Shown piece by piece: positions 1 through 31,510 of a stretch of DNA of 32,000 bases. Position 1 is the stretch's first letter. Each line of letters begins with the position of its first letter. The translations under genes and the position numbers were made by a program. Origin of the DNA: Acaryochloris thomasi RCC1774 (lineage in GTDB: Bacteria; Cyanobacteriota; Cyanobacteriia; Thermosynechococcales; Thermosynechococcaceae); contig NZ_PQWO01000005.1 of NCBI RefSeq assembly GCF_003231495.1, positions 180,001 to 212,000 of the forward strand. Direction: 5' to 3'. The notes below the pieces were generated by a model that did not search any database, was not told where the DNA came from, and worked only from the letters and a program-made list of their open reading frames with translations.

Positions 1-1558
1 TCGCTTGCTGCTGCTTGAGGGCTGATTCTGCCTGTACATATTCAGCAAGCTGCTCTTCAATCTGGGATCGCACCAACTGCCGATACTCTAAGAAGTGCTC
101 ACCCAGGGCGCAGATTGTCAGATAGAGCTGCCAATTTTTGGGCTTCAGCCGCATCATGTTGAATAGATAGGGCCAGAACTTCCAGCGGGTTTTACGCAGG
201 ACGCCCTGTCGCCAGCAGATGGTAGCAATGGCTTTGATTGTCACTAGGTCGGGCTTGCGTGAGGCCGTCTTATGTCCTGGCTCGCCCAAGATTTTGAACT
301 GACGGTAGACGCGGTCGAGATATTTTTCTGGATCGTAAAGTTCCCAGAAGGCGCGCACGTACTCATCGGCAATCGTTTCAACCGGGCGAGTGGGAATGAA
401 GTTCATCAGCTTCGTCTGGTTGCCGGTGCCCTCGTCATCGATCAGCCGGTTCTCTTTGGCGAGCCGCAGGGATAGGGCCGTGTTGGGGAGCGCCTGCAGC
501 ATACTGAACATCGCCAGACTAATAGAGGTCTCTTCAACAAACTGAATGATGCGATCGCCTGCTCCGGTTTTCTCGCCATCAAAGCCAATAATGAAGCCTG
601 CCGTCACCCGCAACCCTCGGCTCATGATCGTGTGCACTGATTCTGAGAGCGGATCGCGATTGTTTTGAAACTTCTGCGTCAGAGCCAAGCTGCTGGCGTC
701 AGGGGTCTCAATACCTAAGAAGACAGCATTAAAGTTACATTCCACCATCAGGTCAATGAAGTCAGTATCCTGGGCGAGATCCACTGAGGCTTCTGTGTTG
801 AGGGTGAACGGATAGTTGTATTCAATCATCCATTCTTTGAGGGCGTTGAGCATCAACCGCACGTTGCGCTTGTTGCCAATAAAGTTGTCGTCCACCAGGA
901 AGATACTGCGTCGCCAGCCCAGGTCGTAGAGGCACTGCAGTTCGGCGATTAGCTGCTCCGGCGTTTTCGTGCGCGGCTTGCGGCCGTAGAGCACAATAAT
1001 GTCGCAGAACTCACACTGAAACGGGCATCCGCGTGAGAACTGCACCGACATATTGTCGTAGGCGTCCATCTCCAGCAGGTCGAAGCGGGGGACGGGCGTG
1101 GTGGTCACGTCGGGTTTGACGTCTTCTGAGCGGATAATCCCGCTGGTTTCGCCCCGTTCGAGGGCTTCGACGAACAGCGGCAGCGTGATTTCGCCTTCGT
1201 CTAAGACTAGGAAATCTGCGCCAGTGGCCTCGGCTAATTTAGGGAGAGATGTGGCGTGGGGACCGCCAACGGCCACGATCTTTCCGCGCCGTTTCGCTTC
1301 TTTTATTTGGGCGGCAAAATCTTCTTGCTGCACAATCATGGCCGAGAGGATCACCAGCTCAGACCAATTCCATTCTTCTTCGGTGACCTCACGGACGTTG
1401 CGGTCCACCAGCTTGAATTCCCACTCTTGGGGCAGGATGGCCGCGACGGTGACTAGACCCAAGGGCGGCAGGAGTGCTTTGCGACCCACCAAGTTCAGGG
1501 CCTGGTCAAAGGACCAAAAACTTTGAGGGAATTCGGGGTAAACGAGTAAAACACGCAT
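1..1558 (-). CDS. B12-binding-domain radical SAM protein (DUF4070-like C-terminal region); C-terminus lies beyond the window edge
   Basis: Hand translation of the minus strand from ATG (1558-1556) gives MRVLLVYPEFPQSFWSFDQALNLVGRKALLPPLGLVTVAAILP... with no stop down to position 1. It contains the radical SAM cluster motif SRGCPFQCEFCDI (CxxxCxxC). The N-terminal architecture is typical of B12-binding radical SAM enzymes. The ORF track omits it because it has no stop in the window. The plus-strand ORFs 272..475 and 1098..1526 are antisense shadows of it. Confidence 0.85.
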   Translation of the reverse strand, partial: MRVLLVYPEFPQSFWSFDQALNLVGRKALLPPLGLVTVAAILPQEWEFKLVDRNVREVTEEEWNWSELVILSAMIVQQEDFAAQIKEAKRRGKIVAVGGPHATSLPKLAEATGADFLVLDEGEITLPLFVEALERGETSGIIRSEDVKPDVTTTPVPRFDLLEMDAYDNMSVQFSRGCPFQCEFCDIIVLYGRKPRTKTPEQLIAELQCLYDLGWRRSIFLVDDNFIGNKRNVRLMLNALKEWMIEYNYPFTLNTEASVDLAQDTDFIDLMVECNFNAVFLGIETPDASSLALTQKFQNNRDPLSESVHTIMSRGLRVTAGFIIGFDGEKTGAGDRIIQFVEETSISLAMFSMLQALPNTALSLRLAKENRLIDDEGTGNQTKLMNFIPTRPVETIADEYVRAFWELYDPEKYLDRVYRQFKILGEPGHKTASRKPDLVTIKAIATICWRQGVLRKTRWKFWPYLFNMMRLKPKNWQLYLTICALGEHFLEYRQLVRSQIEEQLAEYVQAESALKQQQA

Positions 1559-1644: not shown

Positions 1645-2835
1645 TCAAGGTGTGCTGTCGTTTTGAATATCAAAGCCAACGTCAAGCGATTGCAGAATCT
1701 CGGTCATGCAGGTGGATGCAGCCGTTTGTTCTGCTGTCGATTGAACGATAAGCTGCATGTTTTGATTCAGTTGTTTTAAGGCTTGGCTGAGCTGTTCTAG
1801 GGCTGCTCTGGTTTGTGTTGCGGGTTGAGTGGTTGCGATCGCAACTTGTACCCCTTCTGCCAGAGCCGTGACCACAAGATTAGTTTTTTTCTGCATCGGC
1901 TGGACAATTTGCTCCACCGCCGTTCCGATTTTGGCCGTATGGTTGGCTAGCTGGCGCAGATCGTTCGCCACCGTCGTAAACTCTGCCCCACGGGTTCCCA
2001 TGCGGGAGACCTCAATACTGGCATTCAGGGCAATAACATTCGTGCGAGAGACCAGTTGATTCACCAGCTTCATGACCTTCGACATTTGCTGAGCGCTTTC
2101 CCCTAAGCGTTTAGCTGTGCGGGCACCCTCAGCAACGGCTGCCTGAATCTGTGTCAAATCAGCCACCGTTTCCTGCACGGATGCTGTGCTTGAAATCGCC
2201 ATCGTTAGCGACTGCTCTGCAAGATGATAGGCCTCTTGGGTTGCCGCTGTTGCATCGTGAATCGATTGAGTGCAGGTTTGGAGCGTGAGTAGAATGACAC
2301 TTAAGGCTTCTGTCTGGTTGCCGTGACTGGGCTGCACAACAGACAGATCTGGGAGGGGCTGAGGGAGCTCAGAGAGGCGGGCGACTAGGCCCTGTTTTAG
2401 ATCGAGAGTCTCATGCCAGTAATGGGGGTCGTGCGCTTGAACCTGCTGTCGAAACTGCAGCAGCCGGTCGATGCTTTCCGCTGTTTCGCCTGCTGCCTGC
2501 GGCTCCTGATCTCCAGCGATCAGGCAAGCAATCACGGGCATCCCCTGGGCAACTGCGTAGTCATACTCAAAATGAACATCGCTTTTGTCCATCTCAGGCT
2601 CAAGGTCACCATAGCGATGACCCAAGATCAAAACGTATACGTCGGACTGATCAATCCACTGCTCAATGATCGGCCGTGGGAAAAGCTGCTCCCCCGGGAT
2701 TTGGAACTGACCGGCACCCGCTGGTTGATGGCCGCAGCTAAGAATTGCTGCAATCGCTGCGCTGTGTTCGGCTTTCAAATCTACGAAGGTAGAAGAGATG
2801 AAGACCTGAAGCCCTTTAGAGAAGGAATTAAGCAT
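1645..2835 (-). CDS. Soluble fusion protein: DUF4062-like N-terminal domain plus methyl-accepting chemotaxis protein (MCP) signalling domain
   Basis: 396-aa ORF. The N-terminus (LQVFISSTFVDLKAEHSAAIAAIL...SDVYVLILGHRYG...FEYDYAVAQGMPVIA) fits the DUF4062 pattern. The C-terminal part (RTNVIALNASIEVSRMGTRGAEFTTVANDLRQLA) aligns to the conserved MCP hairpin consensus (QTNLLALNAAIEAARAGExGRGFAVVAxEVRxLA). I saw no 20-residue hydrophobic stretch and no HAMP-like segment. Confidence 0.7.
   Translation of the reverse strand: MLNSFSKGLQVFISSTFVDLKAEHSAAIAAILSCGHQPAGAGQFQIPGEQLFPRPIIEQWIDQSDVYVLILGHRYGDLEPEMDKSDVHFEYDYAVAQGMPVIACLIAGDQEPQAAGETAESIDRLLQFRQQVQAHDPHYWHETLDLKQGLVARLSELPQPLPDLSVVQPSHGNQTEALSVILLTLQTCTQSIHDATAATQEAYHLAEQSLTMAISSTASVQETVADLTQIQAAVAEGARTAKRLGESAQQMSKVMKLVNQLVSRTNVIALNASIEVSRMGTRGAEFTTVANDLRQLANHTAKIGTAVEQIVQPMQKKTNLVVTALAEGVQVAIATTQPATQTRAALEQLSQALKQLNQNMQLIVQSTAEQTAASTCMTEILQSLDVGFDIQNDSTP
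1832..1845. repeat. Extended HIP1 palindrome GTTGCGATCGCAAC (example of a dispersed repeat)
   Basis: The identical 14-mer also occurs at 8854..8867 and 26944..26957. Core GCGATCGC copies occur at 551..558, 3974..3981 and many other sites. HIP1 over-representation is characteristic of many cyanobacterial genomes. Confidence 0.9.
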
Positions 2836-2996
2836 TGTCGGCAGTACAGCAGTGTCGAACCCCCTAGACCAAAGTGTCTAGAGGCATGATGAGATAGTCA
2901 AGAGCAAAGGAGGCAAAACCCAGCAAACTCACTCTCAATAGTCTGATAGGGCGTTCTTTATAGCCCGGATCTCATAAATACTGTTCCCCGCGCACA

Positions 2997-3028
2997 GATG
3001 CACCCCTCAATCGATGCACCCTTCAATA
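2997..3028. repeat. Tandem 16-bp direct repeat (GATGCACCCCTCAATC / GATGCACCCTTCAATA) in the upstream region of the DUF4062-MCP gene
   Basis: Read directly from the sequence. There are two adjacent units with 14/16 identity, 160-190 bp upstream of the start at 2835. Confidence 0.6.
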
Positions 3029-3141
3029 ATAGTGCGATTGTTTATTAATCGCCGACTTAAAATTGCAGATAGGTCTATCGTTTATTTGCTTAGAGGGGTA
3101 AATGATGCTTGTATTGTGCTGGCAACTTGTGTCTGAAACGC

Positions 3142-3630
3142 TCAGCTTTCGGACTGACCAAAAACCTGGGGCTTGAGTGCGCAGATTAAGTCGTGACGGG
3201 TCAGAATACCGATCAAAGCCTGTGTCTGATCAAGCACGGGCAAACGATTTACCTTTTTATCGCGCATGATCTGAGCGGCGTCAACCAGTGAGGTTTCAGG
3301 GGTTGTAGTGACGGGTTTAGCGGTCATTACGTCCTGAACTAGCATGCCCAATGACTTCTTAATCTGCTCGTGGAAATGTGAGGGTGATTCAAAGTAGATG
3401 ATGCTGCCTAAAAATGTGAAGTGTAGGGGTGGCTGTAGCGGAGATTCACGGATCAGAAGATCGGCCTCAGTCACCACGCCAACGACATAGTTTTGATCGT
3501 CAACGACGGGCAGTCCACTAATCCGATGCTTTTCAAGGAGCTGGATTACTGTTTCGATCAAATCCAATGGTTTGACCGCAATCGGATCTGTCGTCATACA
3601 CTCTTGAACAGTGGGAGAAGAATTGCTCAT
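3142..3630 (-). CDS. CBS-domain pair protein
   Basis: 162 aa with two CBS-like modules (CMTTDPIAVKP...ISGLPVVDDQNYVVGVVTEADLL and VMTAKPVTTTPETSLVDAAQIM...VNRLPVLD...LIGILTRHDLI). Confidence 0.85.
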   Translation of the reverse strand: MSNSSPTVQECMTTDPIAVKPLDLIETVIQLLEKHRISGLPVVDDQNYVVGVVTEADLLIRESPLQPPLHFTFLGSIIYFESPSHFHEQIKKSLGMLVQDVMTAKPVTTTPETSLVDAAQIMRDKKVNRLPVLDQTQALIGILTRHDLICALKPQVFGQSES

Positions 3631-6318: not shown

Positions 6319-6918
6319 TTAGTTCACGTAAAGATCTCCCTGTAAGATTTGGTCTGCACTTAGATCTAAACTTGGAAAAGTTGCCGACTCAATAAGAGCT
6401 GTTCCTGTAAATTCAGCTGCGTCATACCAGCCCTCTTTCAGACTTAAAATGGTGACCTTTGCTTCTGTGGGATCGACGATCCAGTATTCCGCAATATCAA
6501 GGACGCTATATTCTGATCGCTTGGCCCGATAGTCGATAGATTGCGTAGACTGGCTTACCACTTCCACCACCAAAACCGGGGGTGGCTCACTCAACGTAAT
6601 AACGGCTTCACGATTCTGCAGCTTGCGCCATTGAGAGCGCAACATCACCACAACATCAGGTATTCGAACCGTATCCCAGCGACCTGCCCGAGGAGACTGT
6701 ACTCCAACCACCATCTGTTTAGAAACCCAGTCTTGCTTGTTTTCTGAAATATTAGAGCGAAACTGATTGTTTAAGAAATCTGCGATTTCGCCATGCTGAC
6801 CCAACCCCAAACTCATCGGCGTGAGTTCTCCATTAACCAGTTCGTAACGGGTATTAGTGCCATCGTCATAATTGAGATAAGCCTCAAGAGTGAGGTGTTC
6901 AACAGTGGCAAGAGTCAT
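6319..6918 (-). CDS. Uma2-family (DUF820) PD-(D/E)xK endonuclease
   Basis: 199 aa. It has the typical Uma2 N-terminus ([24 protein letters not shown]) and catalytic-like residues IPDVVV ... VVEVVS ... YRAK. Confidence 0.85.
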
Positions 6919-6978: not shown

Positions 6979-7941
6979 CTACCCTCTAACCAGCACTCCA
7001 GAGGAACTCTGCTCAACATCTGGAGAATTCTTAGGCTCTGGGTTAGACAGTATGATTCCCAGCCCAAATCCTAAACTGGCTATGACACTCACGCTGATCA
7101 GTGCGATCACTACCTTAGACTGCATCGAGAGTGAAGCCGTCGGTCCTGTCGTCGGTCGATTGCTTTCTGGAGCTGGTTCAGCGCTATCCCCGACGCTGCG
7201 AGGTTCCTCAGTCTTGTAGACCTCACTCAATTGGGATACGAGCCACAAAATTGGATCGGCGGTTCCCTCCGTCTTAATCGCAATATTTTGTCCTGTGGGA
7301 ACCAGGATGATAAAGGTGCTGAAGCGGCGATAAACTGTGTTAGATGCCATCAAGCGGGTGTTGAGCGATTCCCACTTTTTCTCAATTTCAGCCATTTGAT
7401 TGGTATCAGCATTGATTTGATCACATTTGGTCAAAATCAAAGAGAAGAAATAACTGATATTTTGCTGATCCGCTAGAGTGGAAATGACTTCTATTTGGTT
7501 GATTGTTTCCTCGATTTGCCCCCAGTAATCGGTGTCCCGCACAAGTGCTGCGGCATCCATAAACACACAGCATCCGTGTGAGTTCAGCATGAGAGCTTTG
7601 AAGTCTGGGTTGTCTAAGTGACAAATTTCGCCAGGGATATCGGCCCAGCGAAACTCACATAGCGTTAAGTCTCCCTGCAGCTCCCGCGACTTTACCTTAA
7701 AGGCAAGATCGGTAATCTTCATGGTTGCCGATGGATACCGGCCAGAACGCTGCATGTACTCCAGCATGTCCCGCAGGATTTGTCGAGATTTTGTATCTGC
7801 CGGTTCAAACCACTTTCCTTTGGAATGCATCAGGCGACTTTTATGCAGTTGAGCGTAGCAACCTGCCAGAAAAACGGATTTGCCGACGCCTCGATGACCA
7901 ATGCTGAGTAAGTTGAAGGTAGGTGGAGTTTTCTTAGGCAT
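6979..7941 (-). CDS. Tail-anchored P-loop GTPase-like protein (uncharacterised)
   Basis: 320 aa. Candidate motifs are G1/Walker A GHRGVGKS (aa 15-22), G3 DIPGE (aa 101-105) and G4 TKCD (aa 171-174). A Pro/Ser/Thr-rich linker follows, then a single C-terminal TM helix VVIALISVSVIASLGFGLGIIL (aa 277-298). Confidence 0.55.
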   Translation of the reverse strand: MPKKTPPTFNLLSIGHRGVGKSVFLAGCYAQLHKSRLMHSKGKWFEPADTKSRQILRDMLEYMQRSGRYPSATMKITDLAFKVKSRELQGDLTLCEFRWADIPGEICHLDNPDFKALMLNSHGCCVFMDAAALVRDTDYWGQIEETINQIEVISTLADQQNISYFFSLILTKCDQINADTNQMAEIEKKWESLNTRLMASNTVYRRFSTFIILVPTGQNIAIKTEGTADPILWLVSQLSEVYKTEEPRSVGDSAEPAPESNRPTTGPTASLSMQSKVVIALISVSVIASLGFGLGIILSNPEPKNSPDVEQSSSGVLVRG

Positions 7942-10052: not shown

Positions 10053-11969
10053 TCAAGTTTTATTTTTTGTTTTTCCCCGACGATAAGCTTGTCTCGGATG
10101 AGTAGGGTTGTTTGGCATCCGTGCCTGCAAACGTTCATCTTTGAGCATGGGAGTGATGTAATGATTTCTCAATGTGTCAGGCTTACGCTTAAGTAACTCT
10201 GCTAACTCCCTTAACGTCAGCCATTTCTGCTCACATAATTTGAGAATAGTGGATTCCACCAGAGTCTTACTAATTTTTTTTGTTTCTCTAACAGGTGCTG
10301 CAACTTGAAGCAAATCAGCTTGTAGAGAATGACGCAAATGTTCGGAGCTACCTGACGTATGTTCGGAGCTACCTGATGTATGTTCGGAGCTACCTGATGT
10401 ATGTTCGGAGCTACCTGATGTATGTTCGGAGCTACCTGATGTATGTTCGGAGCTACCTGATGTATGTTCGGAGCTGTATTCTCTCTCTTCAAGAGTCGGC
10501 CATCGATATTGCGTACCGCGACCATGGCCTTCTTTTTGTAGCCAGCCTGATCCCACAAATTGTTTGAGTCTGTCTCCAATATCCCTTGGATGTTGCTGGC
10601 AGTAGGGCTGAATATCGGCGTTGCGGATTTTGTTGAACCCTCGGGCCAAAAGAAGAATGAGTCGTCCAAGCTCATCGAGTGAGCTGTAAGAACAACCAAC
10701 GACAGCCTTCAATTCCTGCTTAACGTCTTCAGAAATCATGCTGACTAATGGTAGGCCTACCATCGTTCCTTCTAAGACCAAATCTTCAGAAACAAGGGGC
10801 ATGAGCCAGGACTGTTCTCGCCATGCTCGCAAGACTTTTGGAAAACCTGAGCCTGCTTTTTCGCTAAGCCCGAGCATCTGAAACATTTTGAGGAGATTAG
10901 GATTTCGAGCATCACTCATGCCCCCGCGATAGAGCTGATCACGAGGAATGCGTAGGCGTCCGGGGTTGACGAAAACAAACTGATCAACGCGTTTAATAAT
11001 AGTAATGGCACGCGTTGTCTGGTGGTCTGCATGAACCAGGGTGTTGACTAAGGCTTCTCTCAAAGCGTCATGAACGTGGGTTTCTTCTTTACGAGTTGCA
11101 GTTTCGTCAAGAGCAAAAGGGACTTCGATATCTTCAACTAGTCGAGGATAGATTCGATAGTAGAAGTTGAACAAATTGGGTGCCCACTTACCATCAAGCG
11201 TAAGTCGATAGGTCCAACGAACATCTGGATCGTTGGATAACTGTTCTTGATAGTCCAAATGGTAGTTTGGAAGGGCATCAAGCAAGCTCCGTTCTTTTCC
11301 AAACATCAGCAGCCCTGCAAGGGTAACACCCTTCAGTTCGCTACTTCGATCTCGACGCCACCCGCCCAAGCTTTCTAAGAATTCACGGTTGTCTTGGGCG
11401 AGGAATGGATGTTCAGGAGAGCGAGATACAAATCGATTGCGATAGGCGGTTAGTGACTCGGAATCTAAGTCGTCGAGTGTAAACCCTTCTAAAATTTGTC
11501 CGTCCAGTGCATTATCGCCAGCATCGCGAAGCATGAGTTTGACTTCGGCTTCTATGCAGCGATAATCGCCTTCATAATTACGCTTGAAGGTGCCCTTTAG
11601 AGGGTTGCCGTTGATATAGACAGGGCGTTGCTGCCGAACAACCCGAGGGATATGGATGCTAACGAGAATTTTGCCTGAAAGCGTGAGTATGGATACATCG
11701 GTTTCTCGGCAGACGGGATGGCTGAGCTTCTGAGGGTTGTTGTGGTTATCCCAAAAGGTTTTGAGGATGGAGTGGGGGTTGCGAACCCCTTCAATCGTGA
11801 AACCAAGACTTTGCTCTACAACACCCAAAAAGATGGTTCCCCCTTCGGTGTTGGCAAATGCTGACACCGTTTCCCAAGATGATTTTGGGAAGCCACCTGT
11901 TGCGGATTTAAATTCAAGCTCTTGATCTTCTCCAAGGTCGAGGATTTCTTGGAGTTCCTCTGGAGTCAT
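10053..11969 (-). CDS. AlbA_2 (Schlafen-like divergent AAA) / HATPase_c_4-type putative DNA-binding regulator with C-terminal winged helix
   Basis: 638 aa. The N-terminus LEFKSATGGFPKSSWETVSAFANTEGGTIFLGV is the AlbA_2/Schlafen-type signature. The middle region (ALREALVNTLVHADH...) resembles the associated ATPase-like domain. The C-terminal part (WLTLRELAELLKRKPDTLRNHYITPMLKD) looks like a wHTH. The protein contains the SSEHTSG heptapeptide repeat. Confidence 0.8.
   Translation of the reverse strand: MTPEELQEILDLGEDQELEFKSATGGFPKSSWETVSAFANTEGGTIFLGVVEQSLGFTIEGVRNPHSILKTFWDNHNNPQKLSHPVCRETDVSILTLSGKILVSIHIPRVVRQQRPVYINGNPLKGTFKRNYEGDYRCIEAEVKLMLRDAGDNALDGQILEGFTLDDLDSESLTAYRNRFVSRSPEHPFLAQDNREFLESLGGWRRDRSSELKGVTLAGLLMFGKERSLLDALPNYHLDYQEQLSNDPDVRWTYRLTLDGKWAPNLFNFYYRIYPRLVEDIEVPFALDETATRKEETHVHDALREALVNTLVHADHQTTRAITIIKRVDQFVFVNPGRLRIPRDQLYRGGMSDARNPNLLKMFQMLGLSEKAGSGFPKVLRAWREQSWLMPLVSEDLVLEGTMVGLPLVSMISEDVKQELKAVVGCSYSSLDELGRLILLLARGFNKIRNADIQPYCQQHPRDIGDRLKQFVGSGWLQKEGHGRGTQYRWPTLEEREYSSEHTSGSSEHTSGSSEHTSGSSEHTSGSSEHTSGSSEHTSGSSEHLRHSLQADLLQVAAPVRETKKISKTLVESTILKLCEQKWLTLRELAELLKRKPDTLRNHYITPMLKDERLQARMPNNPTHPRQAYRRGKTKNKT
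10338..10475. repeat. In-frame 21-bp tandem repeat, 6 full units plus 12 bp (plus-strand unit ATGTTCGGAGCTACCTGATGT)
   Basis: Units start at 10338, 10359, 10380, 10401, 10422 and 10443, with a partial unit at 10464..10475. Units 2-6 are identical. Unit 1 has C instead of T at 10356, which is synonymous. The repeat encodes (SSEHTSG)x6 + SSEH on the minus strand. Confidence 0.95.
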
Positions 11970-26183: not shown

Positions 26184-27332
26184 CTATTTTTGCGGCAATT
26201 GCATCCCCTGCACATTGCTCAAGCGCGACTTGATAAACCGATCCATCCAGCCCTTTAAATAGGCGGTGTTGGCCTCCTTCTCAGCCGGATCTTGAGAGGT
26301 AATGGGGTGGGGAGCCAGCCCCAAAATAGCGGCGGTGGTGACGCAGTACATCGACTTCTGAAAGGACTGGCAGAGGTTTACTCTCAGACCTGTTTGATCG
26401 CGGCCCTGTCGCCTATAGAGGTCGGTAAAATAGTCTGGTATGTAATGACGCATATCCTGCATCAACAGCGTTGGTGGGATGCCGGAGCCGCCAATGGGGA
26501 CAGGGTCAGCGTAGAGCGCACCGTAGCAAAAAGCGCTCTGGTCAATGGGAATCTGATCTTCTTGGGCGTTGTAGGTAACGGTGCCTTGAAAGGGGGTGCC
26601 TCTGAAGAAAATGGCCTCGACGTAGGGAACGCCGGTATCTATTAAGAAGGTGATGCCTGCTGATTCAGGAATAATCTCGTAGCGCTTGCCGTTGATGAGA
26701 GGGGCATAGGTGATGGGGAGGGCTGCATCTGCCACAAGGCCGTCGAGAATATGCTGCACCACATCGGGGATCGTTTTAATCTCACCTGCGTCGAAGCGAT
26801 CGCTTAGTTCTAAGAAAATCTTGCTCATTACGGTCCAAAACTGACCGAGGGCGGTGGTGTAGCAGAGCTGCCGGACCTGCTCAGGCCAGAAGTCTTTGAA
26901 GATGCTTCCCATGCCTTTGAAAAGAGGGTTGCGCTTGAATCGGGTTGCGATCGCAACCTCAGCCATCTGCTTAAACTCATCTGAGTCGAGATAGGGTTCT
27001 AGCCCACCGCCCCCGTGCCACATCATGCCGCGCATACAGTACTCGGCATATTCATAATTGATGCGGTCGTGCCACCAGTGCTTAAAGAGCTTGGCAGGAT
27101 TCACCTCACCGTTGAAGTACTTAAAGAACGGAAAGATAACTAAAAACTGGTGGTCACCAATGTACTTTAGATTGACCGCATAGGCATCTAAAACAATGCC
27201 ATAGCTCTTGAGAATGCCCACCACCTCCGCAACGTTATCAGGACTATCGGGCAGTAGTGCGCCGCCTGCCTGCAGGCGCTCAATGTAGGTGTTGAGGGGA
27301 TGAGGTCTGGCGGGGCGGGTCTTAGCAGTCAT
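26184..27332 (-). CDS. cupB: CO2 hydration protein ChpX/CupB of the NDH-1 CO2-uptake complex
   Basis: 382 aa with the conserved ChpXY-family N-terminus (HPLNTYIERLQAGGALLPDSPDNVAEVVGILKSYGIVLDAYAVNL...FPFFKYF). The short length favours the ChpX/CupB type over ChpY/CupA. It is syntenic with the ndhF/ndhD paralogs. Confidence 0.8.
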   Translation of the reverse strand: MTAKTRPARPHPLNTYIERLQAGGALLPDSPDNVAEVVGILKSYGIVLDAYAVNLKYIGDHQFLVIFPFFKYFNGEVNPAKLFKHWWHDRINYEYAEYCMRGMMWHGGGGLEPYLDSDEFKQMAEVAIATRFKRNPLFKGMGSIFKDFWPEQVRQLCYTTALGQFWTVMSKIFLELSDRFDAGEIKTIPDVVQHILDGLVADAALPITYAPLINGKRYEIIPESAGITFLIDTGVPYVEAIFFRGTPFQGTVTYNAQEDQIPIDQSAFCYGALYADPVPIGGSGIPPTLLMQDMRHYIPDYFTDLYRRQGRDQTGLRVNLCQSFQKSMYCVTTAAILGLAPHPITSQDPAEKEANTAYLKGWMDRFIKSRLSNVQGMQLPQK

Positions 27333-27478
27333 TGCAGAGGGTCCTTGGCATTCGGGATCAATGATACCTATATTTCCGGCTCGACCCCAAACGGATCATC
27401 ACCTGCAATCAAAGACCAGTAGTGAAAGCAACCCTTTCATACAAGCTATCCTACAGATATGTAGACCTAGAGCATCCC

Positions 27479-28054
27479 ATGACGGCCCTCACCCTCACTT
27501 TGGACCCTATCCTTGATCTGAGTGACGAACAGTTCTATCAGCTCTGTCAAGTCAATCAAGACATTCGGTTTGAGCGCACAGCTCAAGGAGCACTAATTAT
27601 CATGCCACCCACCGGATGGGGTACAGGTAAACGAAACTTCAGCCTCTCAGGGCAGTTATGGAAGTGGGCAGAAAAAAACGGGCTAGGGATCGGCTTTGAT
27701 TCCTCCACAGGGTTCAAGCTCCCTAATGGTGCAGATCGCTCTCCTGATGCGGCTTGGGTCAAGCAAGAGAGAGTCGAGGCTCTAGATGCAAACCCCAATC
27801 AATTTTTGCCCTTGGCCCCTGATTTTGTGGTGGAACTCCGTTCCGCCAATGACAGCCTCATCACACTCCAGAACAAGATGCAGGAATATCGCGAGAATGG
27901 CGTTCGTTTAGGTTGGCTGATCAATCCTCAAGACCAACAGGCCGAAATCTATCGACTCGGGCAAGACGTTGAGGTGCTGCAGTCTCCTACCGATTTATCA
28001 GGAGAAGATGTTTTGCCTGGATTCACGTTGGAATTGAGTTCTATCTTGGCTTGA
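27479..28054 (+). CDS. Uma2-family (DUF820) PD-(D/E)xK endonuclease
   Basis: I prefer ATG 27479 (MTALTLTLDPILDLSDEQFYQL...) to GTG 27422. Catalytic-like residues are SPDAAWV ... VVELRS ... QNK. Confidence 0.85.
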   Translation: MTALTLTLDPILDLSDEQFYQLCQVNQDIRFERTAQGALIIMPPTGWGTGKRNFSLSGQLWKWAEKNGLGIGFDSSTGFKLPNGADRSPDAAWVKQERVEALDANPNQFLPLAPDFVVELRSANDSLITLQNKMQEYRENGVRLGWLINPQDQQAEIYRLGQDVEVLQSPTDLSGEDVLPGFTLELSSILA

Positions 28055-28105
28055 GGGGGCGTTAATCTCGCAGTAGATCTACACGGCGTTTGTGGATGCC
28101 GAGCG

Positions 28106-29665
28106 TCATTGATTTGTCGTAGACGGCGGTAACTGGTCACGCATTGAAACAAATTGGATCACCGGAGGGGTTGAAGGCACGAGCGAAATCGTTGTTGTCT
28201 CTGTCCAGCCTAAGAGCCAACCGGGCTGCAGACCCAAAACGATAATCAAGGCAGCTAAGACAAATGCGGGCGCTTGCTCAAGGCTTGTGGGCTGCGGAAT
28301 CCAGACATCTTTTTGGTCATCAACTTTAGCCTTTGCACCTGTGGCTAAGCGACCAAAAAAGGCGCGGTTGACCAGCAGCAAAAAGTACACCGCCGTCAGT
28401 CCTGTCCCCACGATGCAGAGATAGGTCTGAATCGGGAACGCCGCTAGACTACCGCGAAACACTAAAAATTCAGCAATGAAGCCCACCATGCCAGGTTGTC
28501 CTGCGCTTGCCATGACGCCTAAAATCATTAGGGTGCCGACGACGGGTAGACCGCGTTCTGGGTTTAGCAGACCCCGGAGAACTCGCAGATCGCGGGTGCC
28601 GGTCTTTTTATACACAATACCCACCAGCACAAACAGCAGGCCCGAAATTAATCCGTGGCTGACCATCTGTAGGACTGTTGCGACCAGGCTCAGAGGCGTT
28701 GCTGCAGCGGTGGCTAAGAGGATGTAGCCCATGTGGCTGACCGAACTGTAGGCGACCATTTTCTTCATGTCAGTTTGTGCGATCGCAAGTACTGCCCCAT
28801 ACAAAACACTCACCGCTGCCCAGGTCGCCAAATAAGGTGCAATCACCCGCCAAGCATCCGGGAACAGACCGACACCGAAGCGCAGTAAGCCGTAGGTACC
28901 GAGCTTTAGCAGTACGCCAGCCAGCAGCACCGAGACAGGTGTAGGAGCCTCAACGTGAGCATCGGGGAGCCACGTGTGGAAGGGAACGAAGGGAACTTTA
29001 ATGCCAAACCCAACCAGAATTGCGCCTAGTAAAATAAACTGCTGCGTCATCGACAGCGTTTCAATCAGGGCCGGATCGTAATCAAAGCTAGTGGCCCCTG
29101 TGAGCCAAGTGATGCCAAGGAATCCGCCCAGAATTAAGATGCCGGAAACGGCGGTATAGATTAAAAACTTGGTGGCCGCATAGCTACGCCGCTTGCCACC
29201 CCAGATGGCGATCAGCAGATAGAGCGGAATGAGTTCTAGCTCGTAAAAGATGAAGAATAGGAGCAGATTTTGGGCCAAAAAGGCACCGGCTACAGCGCCA
29301 TAAATCACCAAGATGAGGCTATAGAAAAGGCGGGGGCGATTGGTGTTGCGATCGCTACACAAAATAGCAATACCGGTCAAAATCGCGTTCAGCACAATCA
29401 GCGGGAACGCAAGGCCATCCATGCCCAGTTTGTAGTTCAGGCCCAGAGCATCCAGCCAGGGCAGATTTTCAGTGAACTGCGCTCCAACGAGCGTGGTGTC
29501 AAACTGAAGCCCAAGATAGGCAATCAATCCCAGCGTCGCTGCGATAATCGCCAAGGCTGAAAGGCGGGCACGGTTTTCAGTCTGAAATCCCGGTACCAAC
29601 GCAATGACTGCTGCACCGAGTAGTGGAATCCAAATAAGAGCACTTAGCATACGTTCTGCGAGCAA
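28106..29665 (-). CDS. ndhD4: NDH-1 subunit D paralog (NdhD4-type, CO2-uptake complex)
   Basis: 519-aa polytopic NuoM/NdhD-family antiporter-like subunit. It starts 6 nt downstream of the ndhF paralog. The paralog assignment is inferred from linkage to the ChpX-length protein. Confidence 0.75.
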   Translation of the reverse strand: MLAERMLSALIWIPLLGAAVIALVPGFQTENRARLSALAIIAATLGLIAYLGLQFDTTLVGAQFTENLPWLDALGLNYKLGMDGLAFPLIVLNAILTGIAILCSDRNTNRPRLFYSLILVIYGAVAGAFLAQNLLLFFIFYELELIPLYLLIAIWGGKRRSYAATKFLIYTAVSGILILGGFLGITWLTGATSFDYDPALIETLSMTQQFILLGAILVGFGIKVPFVPFHTWLPDAHVEAPTPVSVLLAGVLLKLGTYGLLRFGVGLFPDAWRVIAPYLATWAAVSVLYGAVLAIAQTDMKKMVAYSSVSHMGYILLATAAATPLSLVATVLQMVSHGLISGLLFVLVGIVYKKTGTRDLRVLRGLLNPERGLPVVGTLMILGVMASAGQPGMVGFIAEFLVFRGSLAAFPIQTYLCIVGTGLTAVYFLLLVNRAFFGRLATGAKAKVDDQKDVWIPQPTSLEQAPAFVLAALIIVLGLQPGWLLGWTETTTISLVPSTPPVIQFVSMRDQLPPSTTNQ

Positions 29666-29671
29666 TTCCCC

Positions 29672-31510
29672 TTACCAAATAAACCAATAAATAATGCATC
29701 CAGAGATGAGGCCCACACCCATCAAAATTGTGAGGGCGTAGGTCTGGGACTGTCCAGTGGCGCTGTACTTAAGGCTCTCGCCGCTGAATAGAGAGGCAAC
29801 TCCTACAAAGTTAACGAGGCCATCGACAATATATCGATCAACCCAAACGCCAATGCGAGAGAGCGTTGAGACCGCTGCAACCACCGTAATTTCGTACAGC
29901 TTTTCGGTGTAAAAATCGTAGGCCAAAAAGTCCTGAAGAAACCGGCGATATCGCTGAATCGGACGCGACCAAGATCGGCTCAGCGGCATCAGCGCCCCGA
30001 TCAAGCAGCCCACAACTCCAGAAGCAACCAGCTCAATTCCGGCTAGCCGCAGATTTGCTATGGGGGGCAGCAGCGCCAAGCTGGTCATCAAGAAAGGCGT
30101 CAGTAGCGTCACCACCATCAAGATCACCATCGGCACAGCCATCGCCCAGGCTACCTCTGGGGTCCGTTTTGTCTTGGGCTGAATATCCCCTAAAAAGACG
30201 AGGCGAAAGACGCGAATCAGGTTGATGGCAGACAGAACATTTACAAACAGCACGACCACCACGTACCAAGGTTCATAGGCTTCAAAAATGGCGATGCCCT
30301 CTTCTAAAGCCCAGAAGCCGCCCAACGGGAATAAACCGATCAGACCCAGTGAGCCGATGATGTAAGACATTGTGGTGACCGGCATCCGTGACCATAGACC
30401 GCCTAAACCTCGCAGGTCCTGACTATTGGTATTGAGAATAATGGCCCCGACGCACATGAATAGCAGACCCTTTGCGATCGCATGGGTCAGCAATATCAAC
30501 AGCGCCACATTGGTCCACTTCAGCCCCACCGCCATAAACACAAGACCCAGGTAAGCGCTACTGGAGTGGGACAGGGTGCGCTTGAGGTCGATTTGTGCGA
30601 TCGCCATCATCGACGTACCGATAGCCGTCACCGCCCCGACAATGATCAGCGCATCTTGCGCGATGGGAGACAGCGCAACCAAAGGCTGCAGCTTAATTAA
30701 GATATAGGCACCACAGGACAGCACCACCGTATTTCGCATGATCGATGCTGGGTTTGCCCCCTCCATCGCCTCGTCAAGCCACAGATTGAGCGGGAACTGC
30801 GCGCACTTGCCGATTGGACCTGCAATTAAGCAGAAACCCAAAAACGTTGCCACGATGGGCGATAAATTTGCAGTCTCCTTCCATTCATACAGCTCAGGAA
30901 AGTTGAGAGTGCCGGAGAAAGTCGCCAGCGACACCATCCCCGACAGCAGCAAAATATCACCGACCCGCTTGGTTAAAAACGCATCTCGGGCCGCCGTAAC
31001 CACCAGCGGCTGAGCATACCAGAAACCCACAATCAAAAATGTCGAGAGCGTCAGCATCTCTAATAGGGCATAGCTCAACAGCAGCGAATCGCTAATGGCT
31101 AAACCGCTTAACGCCCCCTCAAAGAACCCCATCAAAGTGAAAAATCGAGCGACGGACCAGTCTTTTTCCATGTAGCCCAGCGCGTAGAGCTGAGCCAGCA
31201 AACTCATGCCCGTCACCAACTCCATCACCCCCAGCGTCGTGGATGAAAGATGAATCCAAAACGTGAAGTCAATATCTGCAACCTGCAGCCAAGGAAATTT
31301 GAGCGTAACGTCAGCAAAATGCAGCGATGCCTGAAACGCCAAAGTTCCATGCGCGAACGCCAGCAGCGTCATCAATAGATTGACGTAGGCTGCGGGTCTT
31401 GGTCCCGTTCGCTTCACCAATCCCGACGCCCACGGAATCGAAAGGGCCGAACCAATAAAGCAATAAATCGGAATTAACCAGCTTGTTTGTAGGAGCAGTT
31501 GACTCATCAA
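29672..31510 (-). CDS. ndhF4: NDH-1 subunit F paralog (NdhF4-type, CO2-uptake complex)
   Basis: 612-aa NuoL/NdhF-family subunit and the first gene of the cluster. The paralog assignment is inferred from synteny. Confidence 0.75.
   Translation of the reverse strand: MMSQLLLQTSWLIPIYCFIGSALSIPWASGLVKRTGPRPAAYVNLLMTLLAFAHGTLAFQASLHFADVTLKFPWLQVADIDFTFWIHLSSTTLGVMELVTGMSLLAQLYALGYMEKDWSVARFFTLMGFFEGALSGLAISDSLLLSYALLEMLTLSTFLIVGFWYAQPLVVTAARDAFLTKRVGDILLLSGMVSLATFSGTLNFPELYEWKETANLSPIVATFLGFCLIAGPIGKCAQFPLNLWLDEAMEGANPASIMRNTVVLSCGAYILIKLQPLVALSPIAQDALIIVGAVTAIGTSMMAIAQIDLKRTLSHSSSAYLGLVFMAVGLKWTNVALLILLTHAIAKGLLFMCVGAIILNTNSQDLRGLGGLWSRMPVTTMSYIIGSLGLIGLFPLGGFWALEEGIAIFEAYEPWYVVVVLFVNVLSAINLIRVFRLVFLGDIQPKTKRTPEVAWAMAVPMVILMVVTLLTPFLMTSLALLPPIANLRLAGIELVASGVVGCLIGALMPLSRSWSRPIQRYRRFLQDFLAYDFYTEKLYEITVVAAVSTLSRIGVWVDRYIVDGLVNFVGVASLFSGESLKYSATGQSQTYALTILMGVGLISGCIIYWFIW

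Follow-up and report, generated by a model that had tools for sequence, protein, structure and literature searches.

A TIR-like DUF4062 head joined to a truncated chemoreceptor hairpin in a small clade of marine cyanobacteria

Introduction

When a DUF4062 domain is fused directly to the signaling hairpin of a chemoreceptor, which half controls the other? This question is raised by a gene in a stretch of 32,000 nucleotides from Acaryochloris thomasi RCC1774 (contig NZ_PQWO01000005.1, positions 180,001 to 212,000 of the forward strand), hereafter called the window. The gene encodes a protein with an N-terminal DUF4062 head and the helical hairpin of a methyl-accepting chemotaxis protein (MCP). 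We tentatively propose, with somewhat less than even confidence, that the hairpin is a dimerizing and clustering stalk that gates a re-tuned DUF4062 head.

An initial annotation of this DNA, made from the sequence, had tentatively described DUF4062 as a TIR-like or nucleoside deoxyribosyltransferase (NDT)-like module. Published experiments place it with the TIR-like NADases. Preprints of 2026 describe DUF4062, also termed NIR, as a TIR-like NADase effector (bioRxiv 10.64898/2026.05.01.722283, 10.64898/2026.06.25.731849, 10.64898/2026.09.04.749371). It converts NAD+ to ADP-ribose (ADPR) and nicotinamide in Swarozyc, Avs2, Vulcan, Vesta and human TEP1, and NAD+ depletion has been associated with Evangelion activation. 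In Avs2, Vulcan and Vesta, NIR serves as the effector, combined in Vulcan with HEAT repeats. Evangelion consists of DUF4062 and a short AUX region, and its residues F11, E87 and W162 are essential (for these systems, 10.64898/2026.06.25.731849 and 10.64898/2026.09.04.749371). In the Swarozyc protein KpSwz, head dimers are located on helical stalks and form tetramers and hexameric ‘bouquets’; activation is proposed to pass via the stalks, which reposition the heads (10.64898/2026.05.01.722283). The NADase activity of human TEP1 increases with concentration and is reduced in the R976A mutant. The catalytic glutamate is E97 in KpSwz, E87 in the Evangelion protein Eva01 and E1008 in TEP1. The characterized DUF4062 domains are all outputs, under the control of a C-terminal partner. 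That NIR is a TIR-like NADase was shown only in 2026.

The preprints on Swarozyc, on Evangelion and on NIR-containing Avs2, Vulcan and Vesta make no mention of an MCP or chemotaxis partner. A literature search for TIR or NADase domains combined with methyl-accepting chemotaxis found no publication, and it found no soluble chemoreceptor with a TIR-like or NADase domain. According to this search, the combination of DUF4062 and a chemoreceptor hairpin has not been described before.

Results

A two-domain protein confined to one clade

The fusion gene and its parts are located in the window as follows.

1645..2835, minus strand: DUF4062-MCPsignal fusion gene, 396 amino acids (aa), ATG start (list of open reading frames (ORFs), Pfam, exact protein match P0001)
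2368..2808, minus strand: DUF4062/NIR TIR-like head, aa 10-156 (Pfam, AlphaFold2 (AF2) model, alignment to KpSwz, PDB 10wc)
2566..2568, minus strand: codon of E90, the putative catalytic glutamate (alignment to the KpSwz E97A position)
2323..2367, minus strand: disordered linker, aa 157-171, of variable length across the family (predicted local distance difference test (pLDDT) score; ratio of nonsynonymous to synonymous substitution rates (dN/dS))
1687..2322, minus strand: chemoreceptor-derived helical hairpin, aa 172-383 (Pfam, AF2, alignment to PilJ-type receptors, MCP matches in the PDB)
1945..2049, minus strand: tip of the hairpin, aa 263-297, SRTNVIALNASIEVSRMGTRGAEFTTVANDLRQLA (windowed and per-position conservation, dN/dS)

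The protein is identical to A. thomasi RCC1774 protein P0001, annotated ‘McpH’. A Pfam scan found two domains above their cut-offs: DUF4062 (PF13271; aa 10-94, E 6.3e-20, 71.6 bits, cut-off 24.7) and MCPsignal (PF00015; aa 205-377, E 5.5e-19, 69.1 bits, cut-off 34.6). Both domains named by the initial annotation are supported by these profile searches, and the motifs it quoted (VFISSTFVDLK, LILGHRYG, EYDYA and the MCP core) are all present. The Pfam scan found no further significant domain in the protein, and neither HAMP nor a sensor. NCBIfam gave only partial matches, to the signaling region of various chemoreceptors. No transmembrane (TM) segment is found in the protein, whose highest Kyte-Doolittle 19-residue window is 1.18. 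The protein had been described as lacking sensor, TM and HAMP elements, and Pfam and hydropathy agree. We also searched the protein for the methylation-consensus motif and did not find it. The DUF4062 head occupies the place of the sensor and transmission module (TM/HAMP).

An alignment-based, single-chain AF2 model has a mean pLDDT of 78. It contains a compact α/β domain of five β-strands and five helices at aa 10-156 (pLDDT about 90). A disordered linker follows at aa 157-171 (pLDDT about 50), and then a long antiparallel hairpin of helices 172-278 and 284-383, with about 14-15 heptads per arm. A Foldseek search of the whole model against the PDB, with the two domains and the long hairpin in one query, gave only weak matches to TIR domains (SPARTA, SpbK, BtpA) and to NDT.

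A survey of this architecture, an idea of the initial annotation, found both domains in 12 homologues (P0001-P0011 and P0121; 45-100% identity), which come from assemblies of NCBI, JGI, ENA and Logan. Metagenome-assembled genomes with the fusion gene include GCA_020357715.1, GCA_050330855.1, GCA_964435315.1 and GCA_039814705.1. Eleven 90%-identity clusters contain both domains and are 49-100% identical to the window protein. In an exhaustive HMMER search over 1.84 billion representatives, both domains occurred together in just two 50%-identity clusters: P0008 and P0121, the latter a more distant member at 45% identity. The remaining matches in that search have one domain each. The fusion family is tiny and confined to one small marine cyanobacterial clade.

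Could the gene be an artifact of assembly or of a frameshift that joined two adjacent genes, a concern that was raised at the outset? We reject this explanation as exceedingly improbable. The frame is open and unbroken in ten independent loci, which represent five to six distinct sequences, the same architecture is present in the 12 homologues from all of the above assembly sources, and both halves are under purifying selection.

Selection was assessed by comparing the window with four related loci (L099, L100, L006 and L007). The dN/dS is 0.14-0.19 for the whole fusion gene and also for the head, 0-0.16 for the hairpin and 0.02-0.07 for the hairpin tip. All 17 changes in the hairpin between the window and its closest relative are synonymous. 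In the linker, dN/dS is about 1 or higher against L100 and L006, 0.26 against L099 and saturated against L007. Neighboring genes have values of 0.02-0.08, and the fusion gene evolves 3-7 times faster than they do by this measure, with no overall positive selection. Purifying selection on both domains indicates that both are functional and that the fusion is real.

The head and its origin

The head aligns to the KpSwz chain (PDB 10wc) with an E-value of 4.7e-12, and the alignment stops at aa 114. E90 falls on the alanine of the KpSwz E97A construct in that structure, which identifies it as the equivalent of the catalytic glutamate. It is invariant in the clade and is a glutamate in 97 of 103 other aligned sequences. 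F12 is a phenylalanine in 10 of 11 clade members and a tyrosine in the other. F12 and E90-Y91 correspond to F11 and E87-Y88 in Eva01.

We compared the head residues of the clade with those of about 100 other DUF4062 proteins. Residues kept in the clade are Q10-V11-F12-I13-S14-S15-T16, D19-L20, P38-A39-G40, F44, D65, Y67, Y75-G76, S85 and E90-Y91-D92-Y93-A94. Among them F12, S14-S15-T16, D65, Y75-G76 and E90-Y91-D92-Y93-A94 are at least 90% conserved in the other proteins. Catalysis by the head is plausible.

The nearest relatives of the head outside the fusion family match the KpSwz head, a ‘GWV(R/K)’ strand and the coiled-coil stalk. One of them, P0133, is 47% identical to the head and aligns to the KpSwz head and stalk with an E-value of 8.6e-31. 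Within the family, P0121 retains ‘GWVRP’ ahead of the linker and is the sole member with ‘GWVR’. These relatives and the P0121 motif indicate that the head is, by descent of its sequence, derived from a Swarozyc-like protein, with the junction at the start of the Swarozyc stalk.

A truncated PilJ-type hairpin that keeps its N-helix tip face

The closest MCP matches to the hairpin are long receptors of other cyanobacteria (TPR, HAMP and MCPsignal, 800-1300 aa). JGI annotates one matching cluster as ‘twitching motility protein PilJ’. The hairpin aligns to these PilJ-type MCPs ungapped over aa 173-386 (214 aa), in the same register and at 37-40% identity, and it shares with them the N-helix signature ‘ASRTN..ALNASIE’. 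MCP structures in the PDB match it with an E-value of 2e-9. Unlike these receptors, the fusion protein has no TPR, TM or HAMP, and both arms are shortened. The N-arm starts about 94 residues before the tip motif, and 131 residues separate the motif from the C-terminus, compared to a PilJ-type median of 162. At 69 bits, the MCPsignal match reaches half the 143 bits of a real PilJ. The alignment and register indicate that the hairpin is a truncated descendant of cyanobacterial PilJ-type receptors.

The tip was compared position by position with 77 PilJ-type representatives; Tsr numbering is used for its residues. Within the clade, no stretch of the protein is more conserved than the tip (aa 263-297). 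On the N-helix tip face (S373-R388), conservation among clade members reaches 93%, and most residues are identical to those of PilJ; the changes L377V, L378I, A386V and A387S are conservative. Residues N381, E385, R388, G390, G393, F396, R404, L406-A407 and the PilJ-specific S373-R374 are kept. The turn and the start of the C-helix differ: E391, R394, G395, A397 and I398 are replaced and variable within the clade. We also found the changes D401N, E402D, V403L, R409H, E416A and Q423P. These altered positions are 84-100% invariant in the 77 receptors, in line with the substitutions at normally invariant MCP positions that had been noticed earlier. The clade does not have the canonical tip consensus at kinase-control and coupling positions.

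In Tsr and Tar, the N-helix tip face bears the contacts between dimers in the trimer of dimers and overlaps the binding site for CheW and P5. Its retention supports higher-order assembly, and leaves kinase coupling unproven.

How the hairpin may gate the head

In the reading that we tentatively favor, the chemoreceptor-derived hairpin would take the place of the Swarozyc-type stalk and auxiliary domain in a cytoplasmic effector. It would homodimerize into a four-helix bundle, like MCP signaling domains generally. The conserved N-helix tip face would drive further assembly, for example into trimers of dimers, and this would bring the heads into defined proximity. The conformation or assembly state of the bundle would gate the head, with information passing from bundle to head as in KpSwz; other TIR NADases likewise need oligomerization. 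The head would hydrolyze NAD(P)+ or a related ribosyl-nucleotide. Phage infection is one candidate trigger, and a stress signal or metabolic cue from within the cell is another.

Control of the head by the bundle is suggested by the arrangement of an N-terminal effector head and a C-terminal helical partner, and by the Swarozyc-like origin of the head. It is also suggested by the fact that NIR and TIR NADases depend on oligomerization and on rearrangements transmitted through stalks. Moreover, the truncated bundle keeps the assembly face and has lost the kinase-control consensus.

Several observations weigh against this proposal, some of them in the head. The clade replaces positions that are at least 90% conserved elsewhere (R24H, S77D, E88H, T87V/I and K131Q). 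The ‘PAGMELF’ motif of the BB-loop is altered, with M41-E42-L43 changed to x-G-Q. R74 of the ‘RYG’ motif is an arginine in only half of the clade members. In the TEP1 chain (construct 895-1113), R15, R61 and R83 are R908, R954 and R976, and this residue spacing suggests that R74 corresponds to TEP1 R976. The DUF4062 domains of human NWD1, NWD2 and NPHP3, which are inactive in vitro, provide a precedent for loss of activity. The NADase activity of the head may therefore be altered or lost. Other points concern the tip and the setting of the gene. The conserved tip could equally reflect binding of a CheW/CheA-type partner. PADLOC gave no match for the fusion gene, the gene is located in a conserved housekeeping synteny block instead of a defense island, and a scan of viral contigs did not find it there; this setting is atypical for NIR defense proteins.

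The head substitutions also bear on a different possibility: with NADase chemistry lost from the head, the protein could be an inert scaffold or regulator with a structural role. It might be a coiled-coil adaptor, for example, and might act with the CBS-pair or B12-radical SAM (rSAM) proteins encoded next to it. We regard this as unlikely. It would account for the loss of E42, E88 and R24 in the clade and of R74 in half of its members, and it has the inactive human domains as precedents. However, E90 and the S-S-T loop do not vary in the clade, and purifying selection acts on the head as strongly as on the whole gene. Most of the replacement residues are themselves clade-invariant (G42, Q43, H88 and largely H24), which argues for a pocket that has been re-tuned rather than one that has decayed. 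Judged by these residues, the head is a re-tuned DUF4062 domain. Its remodeled pocket (E42G, L43Q, T87V/I, E88H, R24H and a variable R74) suggests that its substrate or regulation probably differs from that of Swarozyc.

The tip bears on a second possibility, a soluble chemoreceptor. Its head would bind or turn over NAD+, ADPR or another nucleotide, and its tip would dock to the chemosensory array of type IV pili, with PilI (CheW) and PilL (CheA), and modulate the kinase. Soluble chemoreceptors with non-canonical N-terminal inputs are known, for example Aer2/McpB (PAS-HAMP) and T. maritima TM14. Like them, the fusion protein has a cytoplasmic MCP hairpin, no TM segment and a small N-terminal globular domain. 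To our knowledge, the soluble chemoreceptors described so far have a canonical tip consensus and are linked to CheA and CheW. The chemoreceptor reading is consistent with an MCPsignal score over the Pfam cut-off, the long ungapped alignment in PilJ register, the strong constraint on the tip and the tip residues that are kept. A remodeled pocket without residues that NADases need would suit a sensor that only binds, and a chromosomal, vertically inherited setting fits a signaling gene.

On the other side, E391, G395, A397, I398, D401, E402, V403, R409, E416 and Q423, which are 88-100% invariant in the 77 PilJ-type receptors, are replaced, and several of these positions vary within the clade. 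Both arms are truncated, with half the PilJ score, and no characterized DUF4062 domain is a sensor. No che or pil chemosensory genes were found among the ORFs scanned in the 32-kb window (27 other ORFs of at least 100 aa were scanned with Pfam, in agreement with the initial annotation) or in related loci, and A. thomasi has been described as non-motile. We consider a chemoreceptor rather unlikely. Of two ideas in the initial annotation, the MCP bundle as an oligomerization scaffold fits better, whereas there is less support for a nucleotide signal that feeds taxis or type IV pili. The reasons are that the characterized DUF4062 domains are all outputs, that E391, G395, A397, I398, D401, E402 and V403 are replaced or variable in the clade, that the bundle is truncated and scores half as high as PilJ, and that che genes are missing nearby in an organism described as non-motile.

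Alternatively, the protein may be an effector or guard docked to an array. The PilJ-derived tip would be located in or next to a host chemosensory array or its components. The state of the array, or its disruption, for example by phage that target the type IV pilus machinery, would switch on the NIR head, with the array as input and cleavage of NAD+ as output. The N-helix tip face, conserved as in PilJ, the effector role of DUF4062 in all known cases and the variability of the turn and C-helix in a tip that is constrained elsewhere are consistent with such a role, as is the faster evolution of the fusion gene relative to its neighbors. However, this reading is reached by inference, the gene has no defense-island context, and its overall dN/dS carries no sign of positive selection. 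We regard it as quite unlikely.

The locus and its neighbors

The following features flank the fusion gene.

1..1558, minus strand: gene with B12-binding, Radical_SAM and DUF4070 domains, running off the window (Pfam; 86 nt downstream of the fusion stop)
3142..3630, minus strand: CBS-pair gene, upstream neighbor (Pfam, locus comparison, terminator scan)
2836..3033, minus strand: conserved non-coding leader or promoter region (alignment of related loci)
3034-3052: terminator-like hairpin after the CBS gene (terminator scan)

Nine distinct loci share a block of EamA, SppA (S49), chorismate mutase (CM_1), in some loci the CBS pair, the fusion gene and the B12-rSAM gene, as far as the contigs reach. 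Neighbor proteins are mostly 84-97% identical among related loci, with CM_1 and CBS at 70-79% in more distant ones. The fusion protein is 50-72% identical where its neighbors are mostly 84-97%, and 43-96% over all related loci.

The neighbors also bear on the adaptor role considered above for an inert head. In 6 of 9 loci, among them the most divergent (L005, 45-nt gap), the CBS-pair gene is directly upstream, and the rSAM gene is directly downstream in every related locus that extends that far. The terminator scan of the window found no terminator-like site between the fusion gene and rSAM. On the other hand, the CBS gene is absent from 3 loci, and the rSAM family is ubiquitous in cyanobacteria that have no fusion gene. 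Among the matches listed, which left out the nearest relatives, A. thomasi included, rSAM homologues of up to 76% identity (80 genome loci and 2 contigs) have no fusion gene, CM_1 or CBS nearby.

The position of the rSAM neighbor given by the initial annotation, 86 nt away on the same strand, is exact, with its start at 1558 on the minus strand. Its conservation, a check suggested there, extends to every locus reaching downstream, but only inside one closely related clade. Synteny is thus inseparable from shared ancestry and provides no evidence of coupling. We do not claim functional coupling to the B12-rSAM protein.

The B12-rSAM/DUF4070 protein is annotated as ‘Hopanoid C-2 methylase’ in the source genome, which looks like an over-call. 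Its family is very highly conserved, with identities of 65-96%, and is often multi-copy in cyanobacteria, with tandem paralogues in L013, L030, L055 and L064. Between the window and its closest relative L099, the synonymous substitution rate (dS) of rSAM is 0.615 (window 1-1558 versus L099 3295-4881), and the same comparison gave 0.155 for the fusion gene, 0.18 for CM_1 and 0.25 for CBS. This unevenness across adjacent genes suggests a recombination breakpoint close to the boundary between the fusion gene and rSAM.

One locus of Elainella sp. Prado103 (L073, 152-7611) contains pilG (PatA-type response regulator), pilH (CheY), pilI (CheW) and pilJ, 214 nt upstream of a B12-rSAM/DUF4070 gene. 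The pilJ product has TPR, HAMP and MCP domains and 978 aa, the rSAM homologue is 66% identical, and the order of MCP and then rSAM is the same as in the window. Unlike this pilJ, the fusion gene is not encoded in a pilG-H-I-J cluster. The order of pilJ and then rSAM is found in 1 of 80 loci among the matches listed, and this rSAM is probably paralogous. The arrangement could hint that the fusion was born in situ from a pilJ beside rSAM, or it could be a coincidence.

A defense-island context was considered and rejected: PADLOC found only an Uma2 candidate and weak matches 4-8 kb away. The window has two genes for putative endonucleases of the Uma2 family, at 6319-6918 on the minus strand and 27422-28054 on the plus strand, and the first matches PADLOC PDC-S03 (E 2e-78). 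The ORF at 6979-7941 (minus strand) encodes a P-loop protein of 320 aa that matches DO-GTPase2 below threshold (21 bits, cut-off 27). At 10053-11969 (minus strand), a 638-aa protein with SLFN AlbA_2, HATPase_c_4 and Fic-like_C domains has weak PADLOC matches to pAgo and SIR2-PNTD. These last two ORFs, at a distance of 4-9 kb from the fusion gene, may belong to conflict systems and are present only in the A. thomasi version of the locus. The region 26184-31510 (minus strand) carries a CO2-uptake NDH-1 set of the ndhF3/ndhD3/chpY type, with two Proton_antipo_M proteins and ChpXY (600 bits), which indicates that the window is core chromosome.

DUF4062-only relatives were found on eight IMG/VR viral or prophage contigs (L091-L098), with 27-49% identity to the head over aa about 7-157. 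None of them has an MCP domain. They are consistent with the mobile, defense-type lifestyle of ordinary NIR proteins, unlike the fixed fusion gene.

A conserved leader

Upstream of the fusion gene, the leader at 2836-3033 aligns with a mean column identity of 72%. It contains long near-identical blocks among the window, L099, L100 and L006. The blocks are near-identical even though the flanking genes approach saturation at their synonymous sites in the comparisons with L100 and L006 (dS 0.8-1.0). A 9-bp stem-loop at 2861-2884, CCTCTAGAC-N6-GTCTAGGGG, is located about 25 nt before the ATG and has one compensatory change in L006, from A-U to G-C. An Rfam scan of the window found no known RNA family. 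The stem-loop could be an operator palindrome or a 5'-UTR (untranslated region) hairpin.

Discussion

Each domain of the fusion protein belongs to a known family, and modular proteins of NIR and a partner, as well as soluble MCPs, are already known kinds. Swarozyc (KpSwz; PDB 10wc, 11cq and 11cv; 10.64898/2026.05.01.722283) is a single-gene DUF4062 NADase defense protein. Like the fusion protein, it has an N-terminal DUF4062 head, with KpSwz E97 aligned to E90, followed by helical elements. The Swarozyc helices dimerize and transmit activation, and the protein forms hexameric assemblies. In the fusion protein, the ‘GWVR’ strand, the two-helix stalk and the helix-turn-helix (HTH)/winged AUX domain of Swarozyc, which binds the portal of phages, are replaced by the MCP hairpin. 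The fusion head also lacks E42, E88 and R24, and its gene is outside defense islands. Evangelion, Vulcan, Vesta and NIR-Avs2 similarly combine an N-terminal NIR effector with a C-terminal partner that senses or oligomerizes. Those systems are mobile or associated with defense islands, whereas the fusion gene is chromosomal, syntenic and limited to one clade.

Two of the less probable readings would have consequences for chemoreceptor arrays. Should the protein signal to a CheA array, it would be the first case of a TIR-like domain serving as the input of a chemoreceptor. It is also conceivable, if quite unlikely, that the PilJ-derived tip plugs a NIR enzyme into the type IV pilus array, or self-clusters in the manner of an array, so that the state of the array or damage to it leads to NAD(P)+ cleavage. 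This would reveal a previously unknown output branch of chemoreceptor arrays, for which cyanophage attack on the pilus machinery is a possible example of a cue. It would also be the first chromosomally fixed, vertically inherited bacterial NIR protein with a possible non-defense or guard role.

In our preferred reading, the head is grafted onto the best-understood bacterial signaling scaffold, the chemoreceptor four-helix bundle, whose conformational signaling and clustering into trimers of dimers are well characterized. The fixed syntenic position and the remodeled pocket point to a possible housekeeping role in NAD-linked signaling in place of classic abortive infection. If the bundle controls the head, the protein would be a natural minimal model of how coiled coils and oligomerization control a TIR-like enzyme, and a case in which chemotaxis hardware has been recruited for an output other than taxis.

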